Below, one piece after another: positions 34,815 to 47,309 of a stretch of DNA of 64,000 bases. A model generated the notes under the pieces. The model saw only the letters and a list, made by a program, of their open reading frames with translations. It was not told the origin of the DNA and did no database searches. How positions within the stretch are numbered: the first letter of the stretch is position 1; every line of letters begins with the position of its first letter. The position numbers and the translations under genes were made by a program. Source of the DNA: Gemmatimonadota bacterium (GTDB lineage: Bacteria > Gemmatimonadota > Gemmatimonadetes > Palauibacterales > Palauibacteraceae); contig JBDHGL010000002.1 in NCBI GenBank assembly GCA_039589875.1, positions 6,608-70,607 of the forward strand. Reading direction: 5' to 3'.

Positions 34815-37800
34815 ATGGAGCCGCCCATGATCCACATCCGCTGTTTCGGTGGGATCTCGATCGAGGGTCCAGAGAATGGACCTATATATTTCAGGTCTAG
34901 AAAGCACGTAGCGCTCCTCACCTACCTCGTCGCCAATCGGAATCGGGCACACGGTCGAGACGAGCTGATTCGGCTCTTCTGGGATTCACCACCCGCCTCC
35001 GCGCGCCACTCCCTGAGCCAGGCGCTGTACGACGTCAAGCGGCGCCTCGGAGGGCTTTCGGTGGAAAGGTTCGGCGACGGTCTGCGTCTCACCAGCACGT
35101 TCGAATTCGACGGGCGACTCTTCGAACACGCGGTGAAGCGCGGCGACATCCGGAGCGCTGTGGGCCTGTATCGCGGTGACTTCGCAGCTGCGTACGACAA
35201 GGTAGGAACGGAGGAGTTCGAGTGTTGGGTCGACGATGAGCGGAGGCGGTACCGCATCCTCGCGCAGGCAGCCCTGCACAGGTACGTGGAGCAATGTGAC
35301 GGCCGAGGAGACTGGGGCGAGATGTGCCTCGCGGCGCTCAAGCTCGTGAAGATCGATCCCATCAGCGAGCGAGCGCACGGCAGCTTGATGCGAGCGCTTT
35401 GGCTACACGGCGATCAGGCATCGGCGCTCCGACATTTCAGCGACGTCGAGGAGAGCCTTTCGCGCAACGTGCCTGGCGGGATCTCGGAGGAGACCCGTGA
35501 TCTCGTGCGACGCATTAGAAGCTCCGCTCCTCCTGTTCCGAAGGAGATCGCGCGCAACGAGCCTCCCATGGTGGGGCGTGAAAAAGAGTTCTCGCACCTT
35601 CGAGACCTCGTGACCCTCGCGGGCGCTGGAGAGGGCTCTCTGGCTGTGGTTCGCGGCGAACCCGGCATAGGAAAAACTCGACTGGCCGCCGAACTGGGGC
35701 GGTGCGTGTCGGTTGAGGGAGTCCGGCTTCTGCAGAGCCGCTGTTATGCTGCGGAAGAGAATGTTGCGTACGGTCCAGTCGTCGACGGACTGCGGTCCTT
35801 CTCCGACGCCGTGTGCGCGGTCAAGGGTACCGATGGGCCGCTATACCCACACCTTCGTCAGCTTCTCCGGTGCGAGCCCGACATGACAGGCGCGGTCAGT
35901 CTCGAAGCCGACTTGGCCGGCGAGCGTCGACGACTCTACGAAGAAGTGGTCGGATTCATGCGCCGGCTCTGCGAATCACAGACGACGCTGTGGGTGGTCG
36001 ACGACGTCCATTGGGTCGATGGATCCTCTGCGTCGCTGCTGAGCTATCTCGCTCGCCGGCTCAGAGATCGCCGTTTTCTCCTTCTCGTCACTGTGCGGGA
36101 CGACGCAGATCTCAGCGCTGCTTGCCGAAAGCTCCTTCGTGATCGGTCGACCGACGAGCAAGCCGCGACGTTGACGTTGGGGCCGCTCTCCTTGGAGGCC
36201 GTGAGAGCTCTGGTGAAGGGTCAGCCAGGAGCCGGAGACGGGGGCACTGGCTCGCTAGCGCAGAGAATCCACAAGCTCTCGGGCGGGAATCCGTTCTACG
36301 TCCTCGAGCTCCTCCGAGACGCCGGTACGGCGGCATCGCCCGAAGCTGCAGGAATCTCCGGCGAGGCAGTTCTCTCCGATCGGGTCCGCGGTCTCCTCCA
36401 AACGCGCCTGCAGGGGCTCGCGCCGAGTTCGATCCGGCTGCTCGAGGCGGTCGCGGTACTCGGCCGGAACGCCACACCGGGCCACGCGGCGGATGCCGGT
36501 GGTCTCACCTTGCAGAGCGCGTCCGACGTCTCGGACGAGCTGTATGCCCGGGGCATACTGCGTGACCATGGAGATAGGCTCGAGTTCGCTCACGATATCA
36601 GCCGGGAGTTTGTCTATCACAACCTCGGTGGAGTGAGACGAGCGTCACTCCACCTTTTCGTCGCTGAGGCCCTCGCGAGCGATGTCCAAGCAACCCTGCC
36701 GACGATCGCGCGGCACTTCCACCTGGGCGGCGACCGAGCTCGTGCGTTCGAGTACGCCATCAGAGCCGCCCGAGCTTCGATATCCTCGTTTGGACATGAG
36801 GAAGCGAAGGCAATGGCGACCCTGGCCCTCTCCCAGGCTTCCACGGACGCCGAGCGACATACGCCTCTAGATATTATCGGCCGCTCAGCACTTGCTCTCG
36901 GACAGCTGACAGAAGCCGAGCAGCACTTCGAAGAGATCAGCAAGCTGCAAGACGACGTGTCGCCCTCAGATAGGGTTCATGCGCGGCTGTTACAGGGTTA
37001 CGCGAGGTTGGAGCACTCTGACTGGGATGGCCTGAGCGAAGTCCTTCAAAGCGCCGAATTCGGCAGCCTTCCCCCGGCTGATCAGTACGAAGCGAGACTC
37101 TCTTCGCTGTCGCTGCTTCTCAAGGCTGCAATGAGGCAGCTAAACGCCGACCTGGCTCACCGCTTGATCGGGGAATTGCGAGAAACGCACGCGATCGCCC
37201 AGAGCGAAGACACTCTGACAGACGCTGCTGCGGCTCGCAGCTACTACAGCATGGCCGCCTATGCAGCATTTTTCGAGTCCGTTGGCAAAGCGGACGAACT
37301 CGTCACGAAGGCGTGGAGCCGCTGTAAGGGGATCCCCGAGGAGCTTGAGGAGCTTGCTGTGAGGATCCTGCTCCTACGTGGTTTGATCAAGTCGCACCGG
37401 ACGAAGTGGGATGAAGCGACCGTGTTTTTTCGCCACGCGTTGTCTCGATCGAGGGAAAAGAACCGAGTGCTCGAAACGGGGATTGCATGGAACAGCCTCG
37501 CCTTTTGCGCTCTCGAACAAGCACAATGGGCTGATGCGGAGCGGTGTTGTCGTGCGAGCATCGAGATCTACGATCAACTCACAGCGTCGACATACGTTAC
37601 CGCCACGCCTCTAACCAACCTCGGGGACACATTCTTCTACCAGAGCTTTGCTAGAAAGGCGATACCTGTTTACCAGCAAGCTCTGAGGGAAACGCGGCCT
37701 GATCTTCGACCGCCGATGCTGGCTTCTTTAGGTCTAGCAGCCCTCCAGATCGGAGACTATCCGGCCGCAATCCAACACTGGGACTCTCTTGAAGAAATGG

Positions 37801-38111
37801 CGCACTCTGAGCTGGCCGGACTACAGGAGCGTTTCAAGGTCGCCTGGCTCGGCGCGTACATGCTAGCCGCATCGAATCCAGCATTAGCTAGGCGATTGCT
37901 CGACGAGGCTGCCGAGGAGCAGCGGGACCTCAATGTCGGGGCGCACTTGAAGTTGCTATGGCTTCGGGCTCTGCTTTGCGATGGTGACCTCAGACAGGAG
38001 AGAGCGTCCACAAGGGACGTGGTTGGAGACCTGGGCGAGGCAAAGCTTGGCTGGTTCGTGCCCTTCACGCGGAGATGGTTAACGGCGGCCAGAGCAAACA
38101 ATGCCGGCTAG
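34815..38111 (+). CDS. AfsR/SARP-family transcriptional regulator: OmpR-type winged helix, BTAD, NB-ARC-like P-loop NTPase and TPR repeats (STAND class)
   Basis: 1098 aa. N-terminus: IRCFGGISIEGPENGPIYFRSRKHVALLTYLVANRNRAHGRDELIRLFW (trans_reg_C). BTAD region: ...WLHGDQASALRHFSDV. Walker A: VRGEPGIGKTRLAAELG. The C-terminal half is an alpha-helical repeat. The 3' half of the gene is noticeably less GC-rich. Confidence 0.8.
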   Translation: MEPPMIHIRCFGGISIEGPENGPIYFRSRKHVALLTYLVANRNRAHGRDELIRLFWDSPPASARHSLSQALYDVKRRLGGLSVERFGDGLRLTSTFEFDGRLFEHAVKRGDIRSAVGLYRGDFAAAYDKVGTEEFECWVDDERRRYRILAQAALHRYVEQCDGRGDWGEMCLAALKLVKIDPISERAHGSLMRALWLHGDQASALRHFSDVEESLSRNVPGGISEETRDLVRRIRSSAPPVPKEIARNEPPMVGREKEFSHLRDLVTLAGAGEGSLAVVRGEPGIGKTRLAAELGRCVSVEGVRLLQSRCYAAEENVAYGPVVDGLRSFSDAVCAVKGTDGPLYPHLRQLLRCEPDMTGAVSLEADLAGERRRLYEEVVGFMRRLCESQTTLWVVDDVHWVDGSSASLLSYLARRLRDRRFLLLVTVRDDADLSAACRKLLRDRSTDEQAATLTLGPLSLEAVRALVKGQPGAGDGGTGSLAQRIHKLSGGNPFYVLELLRDAGTAASPEAAGISGEAVLSDRVRGLLQTRLQGLAPSSIRLLEAVAVLGRNATPGHAADAGGLTLQSASDVSDELYARGILRDHGDRLEFAHDISREFVYHNLGGVRRASLHLFVAEALASDVQATLPTIARHFHLGGDRARAFEYAIRAARASISSFGHEEAKAMATLALSQASTDAERHTPLDIIGRSALALGQLTEAEQHFEEISKLQDDVSPSDRVHARLLQGYARLEHSDWDGLSEVLQSAEFGSLPPADQYEARLSSLSLLLKAAMRQLNADLAHRLIGELRETHAIAQSEDTLTDAAAARSYYSMAAYAAFFESVGKADELVTKAWSRCKGIPEELEELAVRILLLRGLIKSHRTKWDEATVFFRHALSRSREKNRVLETGIAWNSLAFCALEQAQWADAERCCRASIEIYDQLTASTYVTATPLTNLGDTFFYQSFARKAIPVYQQALRETRPDLRPPMLASLGLAALQIGDYPAAIQHWDSLEEMAHSELAGLQERFKVAWLGAYMLAASNPALARRLLDEAAEEQRDLNVGAHLKLLWLRALLCDGDLRQERASTRDVVGDLGEAKLGWFVPFTRRWLTAARANNAG

Positions 38112-38115
38112 TGGA

Positions 38116-39462
38116 TTACGAAGAGAGGCTGATTACGCCTTGCAGGTTTCTTTCGAGGACCTGGTCGGTGGTCCGCATCTCGATTTCATCGAGTATTCCA
38201 GATCGAATAGCGGCGTCGGCAACATTCGGGTCGAACTGCGTACCGCGGTTGTCGACTAGCTCTTGCTTGATCTTCTCACGCGAGAGGGCGGCGCGATAAG
38301 GCCGATCGGTGGCCATGGCGTCGATTGAGTCCGCGACCATGATTATCCGGGCACCGATAGGTATGTTCTCGCCTGCAATGCCGGTGGGATAGCCGCTTCC
38401 GTCATACCACTCGTGGTGATGCCGAATGCACTCCAGTATTTCCGAGGAGATGCTTCGTACTGATTGGACTATATCCACGCCTTTGTCTGGGTGTGCCCTT
38501 ATGAGTTCTCGCTGCTCGGGAGTCAGCGGGCCTGCTTGCCTGAGGATCTCTCCATAGGCCATATCGATCTTGCCTATGTCGTGAAGGAGCGCCCCCGTTT
38601 CGATTAGCTGAGTCAAACGTGGCCCGAGCTTTAGCTCCTCAGCCATTCTGCGAGCACGCTCTGCTACTCTGATAGAATGACCTGAAGTGTACTGATCTCT
38701 GGCCTCAATAGTCTTAACCAAAACACGAAGAAGATCTCGGTTCAGTTGCTTGAGCTGCAGGTTAACGCCGTAGCTGTAGCGAAGGCCGATTAATGGGATG
38801 ACACTGAGCAGGAGTGCCACTGGTCCCCACATCGCATAGAGAACATGCACCAAGTAGGCGAGCGGACTTATCGCGAGATCGAATACGATGATTCCGCCCG
38901 TGAGGTCCCGCCAGGTTCGGAGAAAACTCTCCTTCTGCTGAACTGAGACCACATACGACACCGCCGCCGAATTGATGCCGAAGAACACTGCGGCCGCGAG
39001 CATGAAGGCAGGGAATGAGCGGTTAAATGGCAGTACGTCTAGGCTAAACTGTCCACCGAACCACTTGTACGCTAAGCCAGCGGCACCTAAGGCTAGAACG
39101 GTTTGGGCTGTGTTGAAGGCTGCCTTATGGCTTGGCTTTCGCTGTAGCACAAACTGCTTGAACAGCATAGTGACTGTGCTCAGTCCAATCGCCCCGACTG
39201 GTCCAAGAAGAAGGAGCGAGCCCAGCTGCGGTAGGAAGTCCATCGACGTCGTGGTTCCGCCTTCTGTGATACGGAGGTCCAGCATCGAAGCAAAGACCGC
39301 CAGGCCGATGAGCGTTCCTAGTGCGATTAGCCATGGGCGGTCTATGGGAGGAGGGAGCCAAACGGCGAGCGCGGCTGTGAAGCCGGCCGCCGCCCCTACG
39401 GTGAGCAGAATCGCGATCCGTACTTTGCTAGGCAAAGACATGCGATAAGTAGAAGCCCCCAA
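38116..39462 (-). CDS. Membrane-anchored HD-GYP domain c-di-GMP phosphodiesterase (multi-TM N-terminal sensor)
   Basis: It has about 7 predicted TM helices. The HD domain is ...LHDIGKI..., followed by the HD-GYP signature HHEWYDGSGYP. GC content is about 52-55%, against about 68% for the surrounding DNA. Confidence 0.85.
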   Translation of the reverse strand: MGASTYRMSLPSKVRIAILLTVGAAAGFTAALAVWLPPPIDRPWLIALGTLIGLAVFASMLDLRITEGGTTTSMDFLPQLGSLLLLGPVGAIGLSTVTMLFKQFVLQRKPSHKAAFNTAQTVLALGAAGLAYKWFGGQFSLDVLPFNRSFPAFMLAAAVFFGINSAAVSYVVSVQQKESFLRTWRDLTGGIIVFDLAISPLAYLVHVLYAMWGPVALLLSVIPLIGLRYSYGVNLQLKQLNRDLLRVLVKTIEARDQYTSGHSIRVAERARRMAEELKLGPRLTQLIETGALLHDIGKIDMAYGEILRQAGPLTPEQRELIRAHPDKGVDIVQSVRSISSEILECIRHHHEWYDGSGYPTGIAGENIPIGARIIMVADSIDAMATDRPYRAALSREKIKQELVDNRGTQFDPNVADAAIRSGILDEIEMRTTDQVLERNLQGVISLSS

Positions 39463-39771
39463 TCCAAGCCATTTACCAGTCTAACTTACCGGCCAACAAT
39501 GCGATTAGTGCCCAGAGCTGCATTTGTAACACCTCCTTTCGTGACAAGTCGCAACCGTTCCGCTAAGAGGTTGCGCTTCGTCTCCGCTCGGAGGATTCGC
39601 TCAGCTCCCGGTGCTGGTAGCCAGAATTGGGGGCGTTCGCTACTCCGTTTTCAGCAGTATATGCCTATCAGCCTTCTCCTATCTTAGCGCTGTCGGTCGA
39701 AAGGCCTCTTAAGAGAGGATTCCGTAACCGTCGGCGCAAGGCAAACTGCGATGCTGTTGGCGCAGAAAGCC

Positions 39772-40497
39772 TTAGCGGGACGCCCCAACCCACCGGTTGG
39801 TGGCATCCAGGCAGGCCAGTATCGCCGCTTCCTCTAACGAATCATGCACGCGACTGGCTCCGGGCAGCGTTGTGGAACGCCGACCAGCGAACGCTCTAAC
39901 TAGGGCGATCACCAGCGGTTGCCCGGCCACCTGCGTACTCGAAACGTCCGAGATCACGAACCGCACCGTGGAGGCATGTGCATTCTCCAGGGCCCGGAGC
40001 ACGGCGTTGGCCGCCACTTCGAGGCGTACAGTTGCATAGTCTGCGCCTTCCGCCTCGCCGACATGTACGGATTCCCCTCGTCTGAGCTCAACGCGGCATA
40101 CCGCTTGGCCGCCTCTGCGCTCGACGTCGAACGTCTCTAAAAGGATATCCCGGCCCGCTTTCGCGGCGCTTGCGGCCGCCGGCGCCGCCGGGACGGGCTC
40201 AGGGACTTCTGCCCGAGGGATATCGGGCATCTGAACCTGAGCGACAGATATCTTTCGGTGGTCGATCTCGACGCTGAACTCGGCCATGAGGGCCGATTCG
40301 ATGTTTCGGACGATCTGCTTGGCTCCGAGCGTCGAGCTCGAAAGCACGTGAATCTCCTCGATCCCTCCGATGCCATCCGGGACGAGCTTGATGGAGTCGA
40401 CGCCCTCCAACCCCGTTAGAAGCTGCTCGATGCGGCGGAGGCCCCACGGATCCAGGCCGGTCACTTCGTCTCGAGCCTCAGGGCCATCAGGTGTCAT
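39772..40497 (-). CDS. Hypothetical protein with two tandem domains of about 100 aa, co-transcribed with the GGDEF gene
   Basis: Its start overlaps the stop of the upstream GGDEF gene by 4 nt. Internal duplication is visible (...IKLVPDGIGGIEEIHVLSS... against ...RVELRRGESVHVGEAEGADYATVRLEV...). No motif recognised. Confidence 0.5.
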   Translation of the reverse strand: MTPDGPEARDEVTGLDPWGLRRIEQLLTGLEGVDSIKLVPDGIGGIEEIHVLSSSTLGAKQIVRNIESALMAEFSVEIDHRKISVAQVQMPDIPRAEVPEPVPAAPAAASAAKAGRDILLETFDVERRGGQAVCRVELRRGESVHVGEAEGADYATVRLEVAANAVLRALENAHASTVRFVISDVSSTQVAGQPLVIALVRAFAGRRSTTLPGASRVHDSLEEAAILACLDATNRWVGASR

Positions 40498-42302
40498 CGA
40501 GCGTACTCCCCTTTTCGAACGGGATGGATGCGGTTGCCTCCGTGCGCCTTGGCGATATACACGGCGGCATCGGCTTCGGCCAGGAGGTCGTCTCCCGTGA
40601 GAATGGCGTCTCGGGCGCCGGTATGGAAGGCGATTCCGACACTTACAGTAACTCGAACGTGGCCGTCCGGCACGGCGATGGCGATCCGTCCGACCCGCTC
40701 TCGGATCTCCTCTGCGACACGTTCCACGCCCTCGAGTTCTGCGTTGACCAGCAGGACGACGAACTCATCGCCGCCGAAGCGCGCGGCGACGTCCGTTGTA
40801 CGGATGCTCTCACGAATCGCTTCCGCCACGGCCCGTAGCACGTCGTTGCCGACCTGGTGTCCATGCCTGTCGTTGGCCTCCTTGAAACCGTCCAGGTCCA
40901 GGAAGAGCATCGCGAGCGTGGCCTCGGTGCGGTTCGCCCGGGCCACTTCCTGGTGAAGCCGCTCCTCCAGCGCTCGAAAGCTGTATAGATCGGTGAGCGC
41001 ATCATGAGCCGCGTCGCGGGCCATCCTCTGGTACTGGCCGATCATGTAGTAGGGGCAGATTGTGAGACTCGCTCTCTCCCGCGCTGCGGCCTCGGCGAAT
41101 GATCGGCAGGTCAAATGACCGCACGCTCCGCAGTCCCAGGGCTCCCCTCCGGGCGCGGTGCCGATTTCGCTCAGCACAGCCTGAACATCGGCCTCCTGAA
41201 CCGGCGCGGGTCGCTCCCGGGCTTCGTAGCTGGTCGATAGGTCGAGTGCTTCTGGACGAACGATCACCGGGCTGTCGGATTTGCTTCCCTCCGAGAGCTT
41301 AGCGAGCTGCCGTCGCCAGAACAGCTCGTCGCGTGGACCCAGCGCCGGATGATCGAGGGCCCCCTCGAAGGGCAGGATGTCCACAAACCCCAAAACCTTA
41401 CCTTCCTGCACGGCCCACGAGACGGCTTCTAGCGAATGCAAGCCTCTGAGCTTCATGAATCCGCGCGAAGAGAGCCGCAATTCATCCAGCATCTCTCGTG
41501 GCAACCCTCCGGGGAACGAGAGATGACGTCGCCGCTCGGGTGGAATCGATCTCAGGGTGACCGGCTGGTCGGCTGGACGAGCTTCCCGCTTCTCGAACAG
41601 CTCATCGAGCTCGACCAGCGATAGGGAGGCGTCGACTCCGTTGCGGCCCTCCGGACCGGCCGAATGGACGCCGGCGTAGACGATGCTGGCTTCGCCGAGC
41701 GTGTGCCGGAGATAGCGCGCGAGAGCGACGGTCGGCGTGACCACTGGAACCAGGTAGGGAACGAGATTCGGGTATTTGGCCCGGATGAAATCGACCACGA
41801 TCGGACTGGTCGATCGAATCCAGGTGCCCTGCTCCTCCGCTTGCCAGATGCGGAGGTACTCGGCGGCCACTAGCTCATCGCCCAACGATTCGAAGAAAAC
41901 AGCGCGGAATCCAGCGGCCAGGCAGGCGTTGACGAGCTGCTCCGGCGTGGCCGGGTAAAACCGTACGACCACTTCGGAGGGGAGGACCAGTAGCGTGTCG
42001 CTCGCCTCGAGCGACTGGAGCGCGCCGCCAAGGTCTCCAAGCACGTCGATCGCCGCGTGCGGGCAGGCCGGCACGCAGAAACCGCACTCGGTACACGTGG
42101 TGTTTACGATCTCAAGCTCGCCGCCCCGTACCGAGATGGCCTCGACGGGACAGACACGGACGCACGCCATGCAGGCGACGCACCGATCGTTTATGGAAAG
42201 GCTAAGGCTCACTGCGTCCAGTACCGCTCTCGTCTCACGCTGGGCTCTGCCGGCACACCAAGACCTACTTGCTCGGCGTGGCAGCCCGCATCTCAGAGGC
42301 AC
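40494..42302 (-). CDS. Multidomain signalling protein: 2x[4Fe-4S] ferredoxin-type dicluster, degenerate [FeFe]-hydrogenase large-subunit-like domain, and GGDEF diguanylate cyclase
   Basis: Two C-x2-C-x2-C-x3-CP motifs (CVACMACVRVCP and CTECGFCVPACP). The central domain resembles Fe_hyd_lg_C but lacks the H-cluster Cys pair (TSPIVVDF where TSCCPGWV would be), while keeping a C-terminal CGACGHLTC. The C-terminal GGDEF domain has RFGGDEF and ...DLDGFKEANDRHGH. Confidence 0.75.
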   Translation of the reverse strand: MPLRCGLPRRASRSWCAGRAQRETRAVLDAVSLSLSINDRCVACMACVRVCPVEAISVRGGELEIVNTTCTECGFCVPACPHAAIDVLGDLGGALQSLEASDTLLVLPSEVVVRFYPATPEQLVNACLAAGFRAVFFESLGDELVAAEYLRIWQAEEQGTWIRSTSPIVVDFIRAKYPNLVPYLVPVVTPTVALARYLRHTLGEASIVYAGVHSAGPEGRNGVDASLSLVELDELFEKREARPADQPVTLRSIPPERRRHLSFPGGLPREMLDELRLSSRGFMKLRGLHSLEAVSWAVQEGKVLGFVDILPFEGALDHPALGPRDELFWRRQLAKLSEGSKSDSPVIVRPEALDLSTSYEARERPAPVQEADVQAVLSEIGTAPGGEPWDCGACGHLTCRSFAEAAARERASLTICPYYMIGQYQRMARDAAHDALTDLYSFRALEERLHQEVARANRTEATLAMLFLDLDGFKEANDRHGHQVGNDVLRAVAEAIRESIRTTDVAARFGGDEFVVLLVNAELEGVERVAEEIRERVGRIAIAVPDGHVRVTVSVGIAFHTGARDAILTGDDLLAEADAAVYIAKAHGGNRIHPVRKGEYAR

Positions 42303-42589: not shown

Positions 42590-43267
42590 TCAAGCAGTGA
42601 TTTCCTCGACGCATTTGGCATCATCGTTCGCTGTCCGGTTCACGTGGTCGGAGACCGGAACAGCAACGAGCGCGTTTGCAGGCGCCGGTTGGAAAAGGTG
42701 CGCCAGCTGCTGCTGCCGCCGGATACCCGGGTCGAGCCAGAGCCCATAGGAGTCGTCGGGCACGATCACGGGCATACGGTCGTGCAGCGGGCCGACCAGT
42801 TCGTTCGCCCTCGTGGTCAGCACCGTGACCGACTCGACCGTCCGTCCGGCGCGCTCCCAGTGCTCCCACAGGCCGGCAAACGCAAACGGGGCCCCGTCGG
42901 GCCGGCGAAGGTAAAAGGGCATGCTGCGGCCGGCTTCACGCTTCCACTCATAAAACCCGTCCGCGATGACCAGACAACGGCGATCGGCGAGCGCCTCCTT
43001 GAAGGCCGGCTTGACATGGACCGTTTCGGTCCGGGCGTTGATGAGCAATGGCCAGTCGGATGGGTCATCCACCCAGTACGGCAGAAGACCCCACCGATAG
43101 AGCTTCAGTTCTCGCCCGCCTCGGTGATCGTCGAAGCGGATGGCTGGAATCTCTTGCGTGGGGGCGACATTGAAGCGTGGCGCCGAAAGATCGGCATCCA
43201 GGTAGTCGACCTCGAACAGCCTGGCCACCTCCGCCGCCTGTGTGGTGAGGGTGAAGCGACCGCACAT
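42590..43267 (-). CDS. SOS-response-associated peptidase (SRAP/YedK family, abasic-site DNA-protein crosslink)
   Basis: The N-terminal MCGRF holds the catalytic Cys2. Other motifs: ...FNVAPTQ..., ...RWGLLPYW..., ...INARTET... Confidence 0.85.
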   Translation of the reverse strand: MCGRFTLTTQAAEVARLFEVDYLDADLSAPRFNVAPTQEIPAIRFDDHRGGRELKLYRWGLLPYWVDDPSDWPLLINARTETVHVKPAFKEALADRRCLVIADGFYEWKREAGRSMPFYLRRPDGAPFAFAGLWEHWERAGRTVESVTVLTTRANELVGPLHDRMPVIVPDDSYGLWLDPGIRRQQQLAHLFQPAPANALVAVPVSDHVNRTANDDAKCVEEITA

Positions 43268-43269
43268 CC

Positions 43270-45042
43270 TCAGGACTCTCCGGAGACGCCCGCGGCAGCC
43301 TCTATCTCCAGCACCGTGGAACGAAGGCCATCAACGGTGGTGAGGTACACTACGTTGCTATCGACGCCGGTCGATTCGGGTCCAACGGACGCGCCGGCGT
43401 AGACTCTCACGCCGGCGGGAATGTCGCAGAAGACGAAGCTCCCTTGCTCATCCGTCACGGTCTTGAATCGACGTGCGGACTCGAGCGCCTGTGATTCCAC
43501 TTCGATCGAGGCAGCGAGAAGAGCCAGAATCTGAGTGGAAACGTGTACCGTCACCCCCGCGGCGGGGCCACCGCTGCCGGCATCGGTCACGGTCCCGACA
43601 AGGACGCTTTCGGGCGAGACGTCCTCGTCTCGGCAGAGAGCGGGCATCAGCACGCGCGGTGGAGGTACGGCCAGATCCGCCTCAGCTACGGTCCCTTCCG
43701 GGATCGTGGCTTTCTGGAGAACCGAGCCGAGCCGTAGGGCCGTCGTCTTCCGGTGCGAGAAGGTGATGTAGAATTCGCCCGCCGGTACATCGCTCATCAC
43801 GTACCGGCCATCGTAGTCCGAGGTGGCCTGATGGTTCGTGCCCAACAACGAGACGGTGGCTCCTGACAGCGGCGCGTTCACCGTGCTGTCGAAGACGAGC
43901 CCCTGCAGCGCTCCACGACCCGGTCTCGTACGGCTGACTCCCAGGGTGACGTTGCCGCTCGGATCCGCAACGACCAATACCTCGCCGCCCTCCTCCAGCA
44001 CCGCCGCCAGCCGATGTTCTCTTCGCATCTCCTGTCGGCGTGCGGGACCGGGCGGCCCCACGTTCTCCCATCGGGCGAGGGACTCGACGACGGGCATCCG
44101 GATGTACCAGTTGTCGACGATCCAAGCACCGCTCGGAAGCATCCGGAATTGCACGCGTCCTCCGACCCGGTCGGATTGGAAGCCGCCGGGCAGGTTCTCG
44201 TAGCCATACTCGATGAACTGCAGTTGGGCGTCGGCACGATTCAGCCACAGGACTCCACGAACATCGGCCCTATCGTCCCGGAGTAGCGGTTCGAAAAGCA
44301 TGCCGACCAGTCCTTCGGTCTCGCCATCACCGTCCACGACCCGAAAACAGTGGTCATCGATGAATCGGTCGGAAAGAAGCACGTGCGCGTCCGGCGCGTA
44401 GTACTCGTCGATCTCCTTCGAGAGGCTACGGACGTAGCCCAGGGACGCGAGCTCCTCCACCGGAAGCGCCCGAAACGGGTTAGTCGAGAGGCCACTCAGG
44501 ATCTCCGCCTCCTCCTCCAGAACTCGGAGGGTCTCTGGATCGAGCGTGCTCCGATGCATCCGGGTCGTGAAGCGGAATGTGCTCTGTTCTTCAGTCCAGG
44601 CCGCTGCCATGAGCGCCTTTCGCGCCTCCTCCCAGACGCGCGCGGCGCGCAGCCCTTCAGCGGGCCGGATTTCACACTGCCGCTCGCTCTCCACGCTCAG
44701 GGCGTCCAAGTGGATCGGCCGCACCGGCATCGTGAGACGGTACTCGATCGTTTGGCCGTCTTCTACGGACAGCCCGCGTGTCGAGAAGCTCTCGTATCCG
44801 ATCCGCTCGGCACGGATGGTGTAGCGGCCCGGTCCAGGTGCCTGAAGGATGAAGCGACCGGCGTGGTTGGTGAGAGCGGCCGCGACGTCGGTTCCGCTCT
44901 CGTCCAGTAGCACGAGAAAGGCTGCGTCGATCGGCGAGCCGACGCTCTCTTCTAGAAGCTCGCCACGGATGGTCTGTGCCGAGATCGGTCCAGCGGTCCC
45001 GAGGACGCCGAGCAGACAGCTGGCGAGCGTCGCAAGGCGCAC
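43270..45042 (-). CDS. Secreted CarboxypepD_reg-like domain protein, tandem paralog A
   Basis: Signal peptide MRLATLASCLLGVLGTAGPISA. Three carboxypeptidase-regulatory-like beta-sandwich segments (...GRFILQAPGPGRYTIRAERIGY..., ...SDYDGRYVMSDVPAGEFYITF..., ...TDEQGSFVFCDIPAG...). A roughly 250-aa central region is unassigned. Confidence 0.65.
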   Translation of the reverse strand: MRLATLASCLLGVLGTAGPISAQTIRGELLEESVGSPIDAAFLVLLDESGTDVAAALTNHAGRFILQAPGPGRYTIRAERIGYESFSTRGLSVEDGQTIEYRLTMPVRPIHLDALSVESERQCEIRPAEGLRAARVWEEARKALMAAAWTEEQSTFRFTTRMHRSTLDPETLRVLEEEAEILSGLSTNPFRALPVEELASLGYVRSLSKEIDEYYAPDAHVLLSDRFIDDHCFRVVDGDGETEGLVGMLFEPLLRDDRADVRGVLWLNRADAQLQFIEYGYENLPGGFQSDRVGGRVQFRMLPSGAWIVDNWYIRMPVVESLARWENVGPPGPARRQEMRREHRLAAVLEEGGEVLVVADPSGNVTLGVSRTRPGRGALQGLVFDSTVNAPLSGATVSLLGTNHQATSDYDGRYVMSDVPAGEFYITFSHRKTTALRLGSVLQKATIPEGTVAEADLAVPPPRVLMPALCRDEDVSPESVLVGTVTDAGSGGPAAGVTVHVSTQILALLAASIEVESQALESARRFKTVTDEQGSFVFCDIPAGVRVYAGASVGPESTGVDSNVVYLTTVDGLRSTVLEIEAAAGVSGES

Positions 45043-45045
45043 CAG

Positions 45046-46845
45046 CTACTGACCTCTCCGGTCTTTGGCCGAGAGCGCAATCTCCAGGAAGGCCTCGTGG
45101 ATCGCGTCCGCGGCCACTGAAAAGTGGATTACCGGGCTTTCGCTCGCCTGCTCACCGACCACAACCGTTGCTGCCGCCGAGAGTTCGGTGTCGAGCGGCA
45201 CGTTGCAGATGATGAAGCCGCCGTCGTGGTCGGTGACCGTCTCGAACCTGCCGTCCGCGGCGTCGTGCGAGACGGCCACCGTTGCTCCCTGCAGAGGGTC
45301 GCCCGAGATCGCGTCGGTGACGAGGCCCACCACGATCCCGCGTTGCTCGCTCTGTCGTGGACAGAGTGCCGGAGCAAGCCGGCGAGCCGGCGGGATCGCC
45401 AAGTTGACCGTAGCCACTTGATCCGGGCGGATTCGGACCGGCCGCAGCGCCGAACCGAGGCGTAGCATGCCCACTCTCGGGTGCGCGATCGTGACGAAGA
45501 AGTCACCGGCCGGCACGTACCGCATGGAATAGCGGCCCGCCGCATCGGTCGTCGTTCGATGGTTCGTGCCGAGAAGCGTGACCGTCGCATAGGAGAGGGG
45601 TGCGTTGCGCGTGCTGTCGATCACGACTCCGCCCAGCGAGCCCCTCCCGTTCAGGCCGAATTGCTGCCCTCCGGGCTCGAAGTCGGAGATCTCGAGCACG
45701 GCGCCCCCCTCTTCCTTGATGGCCACCAGCTTCCGCTTCTGGCGGAGCTCGCTCAGGCCGCCAGTACCGGAGTCCGGAGCCCGTTCGAAGGTGGTCTCCG
45801 TGATCGGCATTCGGATATACCAGTCGTCGACGACCCAGGCGCCGCCCGGCAAAAGCCGGAATTCGAGGCGGCCACCCAGTTTGTCTGATCCGCGGATGTC
45901 GGCGGGCAGGTTCTCGTACCGGTATTCGACGAACCGGAGATGGGCGGTGCGCGCGCTGAGCCAGAGAACGCCGCTTACCTCGGTCTTATCACTCTCCGCG
46001 GCCGGCTCGAACTCCAGGCCGATCATGCCGGTCTTGTTACCCTTTCCTTCGACGATCTTGAAGCAGTGGTCATCTAGAAAAACGTCCGAGAGGAGCGCTT
46101 CTGCATCAGGTGCGTAGTATTCGGTCGCGCTGGCGCCTTCGAGCCGACGGGCGTAGCCAACGTCGGCAAGCTCTTCTGCGGTCAGCGCCCTGAATGGGTT
46201 GGCAGCCAGGCCGGTCAGCACCTCCGCCCGCTCCTCGAGTATCTGGAGGTTTCGAGGATCGAGCAGCCGATCCCACAGCTGCGTCGTAAAACGGAAGTTC
46301 AACTCCTGCTCGGTCCACACGGCTGCTGTCAGCGCCTTGCGCGCCTCATCCCAAACGGACGCGACGCGCTGTCCCTCCGCTTGACGGAGTTCGCACTGCC
46401 GCTCTCCCTCCACGCTTAGATCGGCCAGTTGGATCGGGCGCACCGGCATCGTCATCTGGTAATCGAGCATCTGCCCGACGGCGAGCTCGAGAGCGGGCGA
46501 TGCGAAGCTTTCGTAGCCGATTCGTTCCGCGTTCAGCCGATACGAGCCGGGACCCGGGGCGTGAAGAACGAACCGTCCGACATCGTTGGTCAGCATCGCC
46601 GCCACCTGCTCGCCGGCCTCATCGAGCAGAACAACGAACGCTCCTTCGATCGGCGCCTCGAGTGTTTCCTCGATCAGTTCACCGCGAACTGTTTGGGAAC
46701 TGAGGGTTCCGAGCGGTGCAAGGATGGCGAGAAAGAGACAAGCGGCCAGACGGGTGCCTTGGCATCGGAGTCGTCCGACTCCGATGCGCCTGCTACGAGT
46801 TTCTGACTTCGCGGAAGCTTCCGCTGTGATGTTCGTTCTTGGCAT
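45046..46845 (-). CDS. Secreted CarboxypepD_reg-like domain protein, tandem paralog B
   Basis: From the ATG at 46845: MPRTNITAEAS...LAACLFLAILAPLGTLSSQ. Over the first roughly 200 aligned residues it is about 55-60% identical to paralog A by eye (TVRGELIEETLEAPIEGAFVVLLDEAGEQVAAMLTNDVGRFVLHAPGPGSYRLNAERIGYESF...). The ORF-track 5' extension to 47202 was rejected. Confidence 0.65.
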   Translation of the reverse strand: MPRTNITAEASAKSETRSRRIGVGRLRCQGTRLAACLFLAILAPLGTLSSQTVRGELIEETLEAPIEGAFVVLLDEAGEQVAAMLTNDVGRFVLHAPGPGSYRLNAERIGYESFASPALELAVGQMLDYQMTMPVRPIQLADLSVEGERQCELRQAEGQRVASVWDEARKALTAAVWTEQELNFRFTTQLWDRLLDPRNLQILEERAEVLTGLAANPFRALTAEELADVGYARRLEGASATEYYAPDAEALLSDVFLDDHCFKIVEGKGNKTGMIGLEFEPAAESDKTEVSGVLWLSARTAHLRFVEYRYENLPADIRGSDKLGGRLEFRLLPGGAWVVDDWYIRMPITETTFERAPDSGTGGLSELRQKRKLVAIKEEGGAVLEISDFEPGGQQFGLNGRGSLGGVVIDSTRNAPLSYATVTLLGTNHRTTTDAAGRYSMRYVPAGDFFVTIAHPRVGMLRLGSALRPVRIRPDQVATVNLAIPPARRLAPALCPRQSEQRGIVVGLVTDAISGDPLQGATVAVSHDAADGRFETVTDHDGGFIICNVPLDTELSAAATVVVGEQASESPVIHFSVAADAIHEAFLEIALSAKDRRGQ

Positions 46846-47309
46846 GCACTCCACCCCACTCCGATCCGCCGCACGATCGGGACCACGGTGGCAACTTAAG
46901 GCCGCGCGAGTGGACGCGCTGCGCGGGGTTGCCATACCCTCAGCCGGGCCAGAGAATGCCTCGGGCTCGTGCGATGGATCGACCGAAGTGCGGAGTGACA
47001 TGCCGGGAAGCTCTTCGATGCTCAAGAAGCTGCTGTTCCGCCTCGACGGTGCGGCGGACAGCAAGAAGGTGAGGTTCACGAGCGCGGCCGGGACGCGCTG
47101 GATGGCCGAAATTTGCCTGCATTCGGGGACGAACGCCCAGTCGCCCCGTTTGATGATTCTCTTCCGCGACCAGGATGAGCCCACCCGGCCGCAGCGGTAC
47201 ACCCTGGCGCCGCCCTGGGCATCGAAGGTGCCCGCGGAGGCCGCCGAGGAGCTGGACGAGGATCAGTTGAGAGAGTTGCTCGCCGGGTCGGTCAAGGCCT
47301 GAGGTCATC

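Follow-up and report, generated by a model that had tools for sequence, protein, structure and literature searches.

The window analysed here is a stretch of 64,000 nucleotides from a Gemmatimonadota bacterium (assembly GCA_039589875.1, contig JBDHGL010000002.1, positions 6,608 to 70,607), and it encodes at 40494..42212 of the minus strand a sensor diguanylate cyclase of 572 amino acids (aa) plus stop codon. In this study, we found that the cyclase combines an [FeFe]-hydrogenase H-domain homologue without any H-cluster ligand, three predicted iron-sulfur (Fe-S) cluster sites and a GGDEF output domain. Judged from sequence, its sensor descends from the putative sensory [FeFe]-hydrogenases. We consider it reasonably probable that the cyclase is a cytoplasmic sensor of Fe-S redox state, O2 or cluster integrity that controls the synthesis of cyclic diguanylate (c-di-GMP). 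The protein contains no hydrophobic segments and is predicted to be soluble and cytoplasmic, and it appears as a member of an orthologue group spread across the phylum Gemmatimonadota. Residue numbers refer to the 572-aa protein beginning at a GTG codon, except for the positions of Pfam and NCBIfam matches, which are numbered on the longest open reading frame (ORF). All features lie on the minus strand unless stated otherwise.

The H-domain homologue spans residues 58-300 (41313..42041). An earlier note on this DNA had likened this central domain, by eye, to the hydrogenase large-subunit C-terminal domain, and the domain boundaries were checked with profiles for Fe_hyd_lg_C, Fer4 and GGDEF, all three of which matched. 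Pfam Fe_hyd_lg_C (PF02906) matched positions 117-205 with E 2.6e-11, as a partial hit covering profile positions 24-116 of 245. The NCBIfam model for monomeric [FeFe] hydrogenase, TIGR04105, matched 46-245 with E 1.9e-26, far under the family cut-off. A profile built from 55 family sequences aligned with residues 144-455 of the hydrogenase CpI (hhalign 96%, E 2.7e-9), the CpI reference sequence having been checked against PDB 1FEH/3C8Y. A sensor-only profile was also compared with a profile of relatives that keep the H-cluster Cys residues and carry kinase, PAS or GGDEF outputs, and the two matched across all 395 residues (hhalign 100%, E 7.8e-72). The profile of these relatives in turn matched CpI 139-511, the L3 motif included (hhalign 99.7%, E 3.9e-27). 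Profiles were needed to reveal the homology to hydrogenases: when the central domain by itself was searched as one sequence against the PDB, no hydrogenase was returned, just weak PF04060-type matches. The likeness seen by eye is significant by both Pfam and hhalign, and the absence of a hydrogenase-family match, which the note had named as grounds for abandoning it, was not what these searches gave.

The columns that hold the H-cluster ligands in CpI were then read from the profile alignments and a MAFFT alignment. The former L1 motif (41802..41816) reads RSTSP against TSCCP (IRSTSPIVV against FTSCCPGWV in CpI), with T135 at the position of C299, S136 at that of C300 and P137 at that of P301. 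In the former L2 motif (41649..41675), AGVHSAGPE stands against VMPCTSKKFE; the Cys of MPCxxK is absent, and a deletion of nine residues removes the K358 segment, so equivalents of both Cys355 and Lys358 are missing. The former L3 motif (41346..41387) reads FVDILPFEGALDHP against FIEVMACHGGCVNG, and the aligned stretch is DILPFE-GALDHP in the window protein and EVMACHGGCVNG in CpI. The L3 pattern ExMxCxxGCxxG is replaced by DILPFEGALDHP, in which F282 aligns with C499 and A285 with C503. L286 was considered as the equivalent of C503 and rejected, since the alignments place C503 at A285. The earlier note had reported the loss of the H-cluster Cys pair, and this loss was confirmed; its register of TSPIVVDF against TSCCPGWV was not, the correct pairing being RSTSP with TSCCP. 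The loss is also wider than the L1 pair and includes the equivalents of C355, together with K358, and of C499 and C503. As read from these alignments, the [4Fe-4S] part of the H-cluster and the Cys bridging to its 2Fe part cannot be held because C300, C355, C499 and C503 are all without equivalents. Homology to the H-domain was found by Pfam and hhalign, but the window protein is not a hydrogenase in the functional sense because the other three of the four defining features, the L1, L2 and L3 motifs, are lacking.

The motifs for the accessory clusters are kept. Two ferredoxin-type CxxCxxCxxxCP motifs (C11, C14, C17, C21 and C40, C43, C46, C50; 42048..42191) were matched by Pfam Fer4, twice at 38-87, and by Fer4_7, Fer4_9 and Fer4_10, and they are predicted to hold two [4Fe-4S] clusters. 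All eight Cys residues are conserved in homologues wherever the region is covered, in agreement with the two complete motifs described earlier. The LdpA_Fe-S-bd model also matched (E 2.1e-7), but the match is limited to the generic dicluster ferredoxin motif, and the candidate of an LdpA-like clock or redox protein was rejected. A third motif, Cx2Cx4Cx16C of the PF04060 type (C361, C364, C369, C386; 41055..41132), follows the H-like domain. It was identified by the Pfam model "FeS" (PF04060) at 390-418 with E 2e-8 and is predicted to hold a third [4Fe-4S] cluster; its weak PDB sequence matches are to the cluster-binding N-termini of the large subunit of the corrinoid/iron-sulfur protein (CFeSP; 4djd_C) and RnfB (8ahx_B). 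The element CGACGHLTC, taken in the earlier note for a distal part of the hydrogenase domain, belongs to this separate motif. Among the putative sensory [FeFe]-hydrogenases, those of groups C and D carry Cx2Cx4Cx16C after the H-domain as an extra C-terminal cluster motif (PMC8163306), and its spacing in the window protein, C361-x2-C364-x4-C369-x16-C386, is identical to theirs. C364, C369 and C386 are invariant among 121 homologues. Position 361 is Cys in 31 of them and Thr or Ser in the remainder, and thus 11 of the 12 cluster ligands are conserved wherever the region is covered. With two [4Fe-4S] motifs, an H-domain and Cx2Cx4Cx16C in this order, followed directly by GGDEF, both the HydS-like architecture and its direct fusion to a cyclase, as proposed from the letters, were borne out.

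The output domain (40530..41012) was recognised by Pfam GGDEF at 431-591 (E 3.4e-40), by TIGR00254 (E 2e-45) and by Foldseek. The catalytic motif RFGGDEF at residues 478-484 is intact, and the I-site RxxD (R471-T-T-D474) lies five residues upstream of GGDEF (the two together at 40761..40802). The arrangement RxxD-x5-GGDEF was found in all orthologues covering the region except one that has GGDEM. The modelled domain superimposed on the GGDEF domain of DosC with a Foldseek TM of 0.87-0.90 and 38% identity. The canonical motif, the I-site and the modelled fold suggest that the domain is apparently active, and the earlier description of it as intact holds. Between the last cluster Cys and the start of GGDEF lies a stalk of 14 residues (41013..41054), predicted to be helical from the translation and the AlphaFold2 (AF2) model, in which residues 387-405 form a helix; the ferredoxin part of this model is poor. 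No Pfam match to a PAS domain, a trait of group C, was found in the cyclase, and GGDEF comes directly after the cluster motif.

The family was collected by searching 1.84 billion cluster representatives with the central region, which gave 1064 relatives at E <= 1e-3 and 27 at E <= 1e-30. A scan with the sensor-only alignment, limited to a single genome for each species, recovered 143 relatives, and 80 loci were retained as the orthologue set. All 80 are from Gemmatimonadota metagenome-assembled genomes (MAGs) of soil, marine sediment and groundwater, complete chromosomes among them, and identity between species-level orthologues is 47-75%. The database search suggested in the earlier note therefore recovered the same architecture in a phylum-wide group, and it also recovered forms in Actinomycetota (Coriobacteriia included) and Bacillota. 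In Dehalococcoidia and Armatimonadota, forms linked to a kinase were seen. The approximately 110 relatives outside Gemmatimonadota all keep the four H-cluster Cys residues, while the position of K358 is Lys in the kinase-linked relatives and mostly Arg, Ala or Glu in the GGDEF-linked ones. Since many of these GGDEF-linked forms (P0165, P0394-P0480) keep the four Cys with mostly R, A or E for K358, they may hold just a [4Fe-4S] cluster, in a Nar1-like manner.

Within Gemmatimonadota, the four Cys residues have been lost in steps, in approximately three quarters of the orthologues. In about 20 of the 80, the four positions are all still Cys (RSTCP, AGVC(L/I)-TE and DILPCEGCLDHP), but the K358 segment is absent. 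The window type has Ser, Phe and Ala at the positions of C300, C499 and C503, and its C-terminal motif has all four Cys. In a large group that is mostly marine, these residues are Ser, Phe and Asn, position 361 is Thr, and positions 64, 143, 196 and 477 are further conserved Cys. Tyr is seen in another group ("DLLPYERDLDHP"), and a small one (L061, L077, L078 and L080, an uncultured Gemmatimonas included) has Asp at C300 and Ser, Tyr or Ala at C499. Columns conserved at 95% or more make up 22-26% of the H-like domain and 25% of GGDEF. The linker of residues 301-350 (41163..41312), which joins the H-like domain to the C-terminal cluster motif, is poorly conserved, with 6% of such columns. As the H-like domain equals GGDEF in conservation, it is kept by selection and is not decaying. 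Around the former pocket, R133-S134-T135, D278 and H288-P289 are at least 97% conserved in the Gemmatimonadota orthologues, and H288 takes the place of a Gly found in relatives outside the phylum (DHP versus DGP).

The mostly marine clade (L001, L011-L039) was observed to have T or S at position 361 and the additional Cys residues listed above, which in the window protein are A, I, S and A, respectively. A ligand swap is possible from the alignment, but the additional Cys residues were also seen in some proteins that keep C361.

The cyclase gene belongs to a conserved cluster, with the two genes described here and the gene for a BTAD/AAA regulator that is described further below. Directly downstream lies the gene for a 241-aa partner protein (39772..40497), whose ATG overlaps the stop codon of the cyclase (ATGA), so that the two are predicted to be translationally coupled; the partner gene takes this downstream position in 59 of 61 loci. 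The partner gave no Pfam or NCBIfam match. It has approximately 2750 homologues, all of those listed being annotated as "hypothetical protein" and those with a named organism all being from Gemmatimonadota. In its confident AF2 model (pLDDT 85.6), an alpha-beta-beta-alpha-beta N-terminal domain is connected by a Pro/Ala-rich linker to two beta-beta-beta-alpha units. The C-terminal units resembled the regulatory domain by which M. tuberculosis LeuA binds leucine (Foldseek E 1.3e-5, 129 columns, 3.5 A, approximately 15% identity), and the next matches were double-stranded-RNA-binding domains. The likeness to LeuA, which comes from a model, is a lead and not a function; the partner may be a ligand-binding adaptor of a c-di-GMP module. 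Farther downstream on the same strand, a membrane protein with MASE9 (Pfam E 1.6e-7) and HD-GYP (HD_5, E 6.8e-34) domains is encoded at 38116..39462. Its HD and GYP motifs are intact, it has several hydrophobic segments, and it is predicted to be a c-di-GMP phosphodiesterase. The gene follows the cyclase in 29 of 33 loci, and the gene order is the same at a relative with 51% identity.

From the domain homology, the ligands lost and kept, the conservation, the synteny and the intact catalytic motifs observed here, we infer cluster binding, the identity of the signal and a route for its transmission as follows. The hydrogenase-derived scaffold would carry three [4Fe-4S] clusters, two at the N-terminus and one right before the catalytic domain. 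The signal would be the redox state or integrity of these clusters and not H2, and would be set by the low-potential electron pool, O2, nitric oxide, reactive oxygen species or the supply of Fe-S. Redox and iron, two of the signals proposed in the earlier note, are thereby compatible with the sequence, as is O2. A change at the C-terminal cluster may travel through the helical stalk into GGDEF, where it would alter the geometry of the catalytic homodimer and with it the synthesis of c-di-GMP, and the intact I-site would add product feedback. The cyclase would act in a conserved module with the coupled two-domain partner and the membrane MASE9-HD-GYP phosphodiesterase. Two points weigh against this mechanism. 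The C-terminal cluster would not be uniform in coordination or presence across the family, because position 361 is Thr or Ser in most marine-type orthologues. The N-terminal clusters may also have been uncoupled from the C-terminal one when the [4Fe-4S] part of the H-cluster was lost, if electrons once crossed it.

Alternatively, the Fe-S and hydrogenase-like module could serve above all as a scaffold, for structure or dimerisation, and the signal would then come in by way of the 241-aa partner or of a new ligand site in the former pocket. The translational coupling of the partner and its presence in 59 of 61 loci, its resemblance to the LeuA regulatory domain, the residues around the former pocket that stayed at least 97% conserved despite the Cys loss, and the exchange of Gly for H288 all fit such a role. 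However, eleven cluster-ligand Cys residues conserved across the phylum are hard to square with unimportant clusters, the LeuA match is a fold resemblance at low identity that says nothing on ligand binding, and no ligand can be named. We regard this explanation as unlikely. It is also quite improbable, although less so than the two explanations in the next paragraph, that the protein is specifically a sensor of iron or Fe-S supply, in which activity differs between apo and holo forms and occupancy rather than redox is the signal. Three cluster sites in one sensor could make activity steeply dependent on supply, and the variable ligand at 361 (C, T or S) could render the C-terminal cluster labile. 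On the other hand, the gene neighbourhood of the cyclase holds no iron-uptake or Fe-S-assembly genes, and electron transfer is the usual role of ferredoxin-type 2x[4Fe-4S] domains.

The clear degeneration of the H-cluster site would also suit an N-terminal module that is an evolutionary relic, with the cyclase controlled by I-site feedback and gene expression alone. This gains very little credence, as the near-invariant columns of the H-like domain match those of the catalytic domain, relaxation is confined to residues 301-350, and the module is retained in 80 of 80 species-level orthologues. A true HydS-like H2 sensor, in which an H-cluster meets H2 and electrons switch the output domain, would fit the group C/D architecture and the Thr for C299 shared with sensory-type relatives, but with the four Cys and K358 gone, Phe and Ala at C499 and C503, and the same loss in approximately three quarters of species-level orthologues, H2 sensing, raised as one option in the earlier note, is so very unlikely that we rejected it on the ligand evidence.

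A further reading, which we hold as speculative and rather doubtful, is that the Gemmatimonadota group records the conversion of an H2-sensing module into another sensor. The emptied but conserved pocket may have been re-used to contact a new ligand or protein, and the cyclase, its LeuA-regulatory-like partner and the HD-GYP protein could jointly form a self-contained c-di-GMP oscillator or switch. Under such a conversion, some species would still have a [4Fe-4S] cluster where the H-cluster once was, whereas in others, the window protein included, the site would be filled by Phe or Tyr and accompanied by an invariant His (DHP).

Of the interpretation in the earlier note, the HydS-like logic stands and the H2 signal does not. 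Putative sensory hydrogenases of group C (M2f, such as HydS of Thermotoga maritima) and group D (M2e, HydS of Thermoanaerobacter mathranii) likewise have 2x[4Fe-4S] and Cx2Cx4Cx16C, and in them, as in the window protein with T135, the proton-transfer Cys299 is not conserved. However, their H-cluster is functional and allows turnover of H2 (PMC8163306), whereas the window protein is without all four cluster Cys residues and K358. The outputs differ as well: PAS in group C, none fused in group D and GGDEF here. Among the HydDB [FeFe] subtypes, C1-C3 are linked to a histidine kinase, chemotaxis or a phosphatase (PMC5037454), and they share with the window protein the combination of a hydrogenase-type sensor with a signalling output. 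A class linked to diguanylate cyclase is listed there only under [NiFe] (group 2c, putative), and none is in the [FeFe] table (PMC5037454). Group 2c has in common with the window protein the idea of coupling a hydrogenase to c-di-GMP, but belongs to an unrelated metalloenzyme family. As predicted from its motifs, the window protein would fail any hydrogenase classifier that needs the H-cluster motifs. Outside the phylum, the four-part architecture is shared by the GGDEF-linked Fer4-Fe_hyd_lg_C-FeS proteins of Actinomycetota and Bacillota (P0165, P0408, P0417 and P0467 among them). These are homologous over their whole length, with 33-35% identity to the Gemmatimonadota members appearing in the P0165 search. 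They keep the four H-cluster Cys, unlike the window protein, and are also uncharacterised.

Eukaryotic Nar1/NARFL (IOP1), conceptually the nearest parallel, is an H-domain homologue that performs no H2 chemistry, has another role and still binds Fe-S. Proteins of the Nar1 type keep the four Cys residues of the H-cluster site and have a [4Fe-4S] cluster there. These Cys are not present in the window protein, but they are in approximately 20 of the 80 orthologues and in all the Actinomycetota and Bacillota relatives, and such "CCC-type" Gemmatimonadota orthologues are closer analogues of Nar1 than the window protein is. The globin-coupled DosC/DgcO and the hemerythrin cyclase Bhr-DGC also join a cytoplasmic metallocofactor sensor to an active GGDEF domain with an I-site, and the DosC domain is the closest structural match of the window GGDEF; they use haem or di-iron, while the window protein would use [4Fe-4S] clusters on a hydrogenase scaffold. 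Hemerythrin diguanylate cyclases have been reviewed (PMC9388753). The proposed logic, in which cluster state reports O2 or redox, is the same as in FNR, NreB, NsrR and cyanobacterial LdpA, although folds and outputs differ. To our knowledge, sensor diguanylate cyclases use haem, flavin, di-iron, zinc or light-sensing cofactors. No Fe-S-cluster diguanylate cyclase was found in the open-access literature. Nor was a GGDEF-linked or H-cluster-less bacterial [FeFe]-hydrogenase-like protein described there, which agrees with the earlier expectation of an architecture without functional characterisation, an absence that is not proof.

If the preferred reading is confirmed, Fe-S clusters would be an added class of cofactor for c-di-GMP input, and the low-potential electron pool or O2 would be tied directly to decisions on biofilm and motility. 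Gemmatimonadota are abundant in soil and sediment, and their signalling is almost unstudied. If the conversion described above is true, it would be the first case of a diguanylate cyclase with Fe-S clusters, and eukaryotic Nar1 would have a parallel in bacteria. The family also offers a natural deletion series in four states: ligands with K358 (kinase-linked), all four Cys but no K358 (many of the GGDEF-linked relatives), all four Cys in part of the Gemmatimonadota group, and none in the remainder. This series could reveal the parts played by the accessory clusters and by the scaffold in HydS-type signalling.

The start of the cyclase gene was also reconsidered. The ORF list contains a minus-strand ORF at 40494..42302, as the earlier note had it, and the ORF itself stands; its start at 42302 does not, since the N-termini of homologues favour GTG at 42212 (V31 of the long ORF). 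This GTG is most likely the true start of the 572-aa product, because "MSLRFSINEKC" of full-length homologues lines up with "VSLSLSINDRC", and nothing in the homologues corresponds to the 30 codons with which the long ORF begins. The extent of the gene given at the outset was fixed from the ORF list, the DNA at the start, these N-termini and the translation. A systematic error was seen in public gene calls, in which many family members (P0001, P0097, P0109, P0120 and others) start at the internal Met of "CMACVRVCP". The miscalled members are 558-562 aa long, the internal start being M45 (region 42080-42212), and the identical database entry P0001 is 558 aa. Such a call removes the first two Cys residues of cluster motif 1, that is, half of the motif, which makes it an annotation problem for a family that is widespread in databases under the bare label "diguanylate cyclase".

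Side observations were made on relatives with other arrangements. P0190 (Moorella naiadis) has a Fer4, H-domain and FeS sensor fused to a sigma-54 activator (Sigma54_activat, HTH_8), another class of output. A subset of P0170-P0270, which includes P0171, P0178, P0191 and P0218, consists of proteins 580-885 aa long whose first 170-280 residues align with the H-like domain and cover its N-terminal half; ferredoxin motifs are absent from the subset, and no other Pfam domain was found in the four named members, which were scanned. At L040:6001-9534 (CP070823, a complete-chromosome MAG), the frame of the cyclase continues to 1178 aa into DUF5916-type sequence, and the locus is without the partner and HD-GYP genes, as is L050. 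Loss of the stop codon, an error in the assembly or rearrangement of the locus probably accounts for the L040 fusion.

In the wider neighbourhood, no c-di-GMP riboswitch or other RNA family was found in an Rfam scan of the window, and a promoter and terminator scan of the operon gave nothing over shuffled expectation. The start codon of the MASE9-HD-GYP gene is uncertain, as a homologue is called at 381 aa and the longest ORF here is 448 aa. Convergent with this gene lies one for a SARP/AfsR-like regulator of 1098 aa (34815..38111, plus strand; Pfam Trans_reg_C, BTAD, AAA_16, TPR), an orientation found in 20 of 26 loci having enough flank. Upstream of the cyclase are a gene for an SOS-response-associated peptidase (SRAP; 42590-43267), syntenic only in the closest clade (L002-L009), and, farther out, two genes for large CarboxypepD_reg-repeat proteins (43270-45042 and 45046-47202). 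The G+C content is 0.57 at 38001-40000 and approximately 0.65 in the rest of the window, and the dip extends over the HD-GYP gene and the gap of 310 bp that precedes it.

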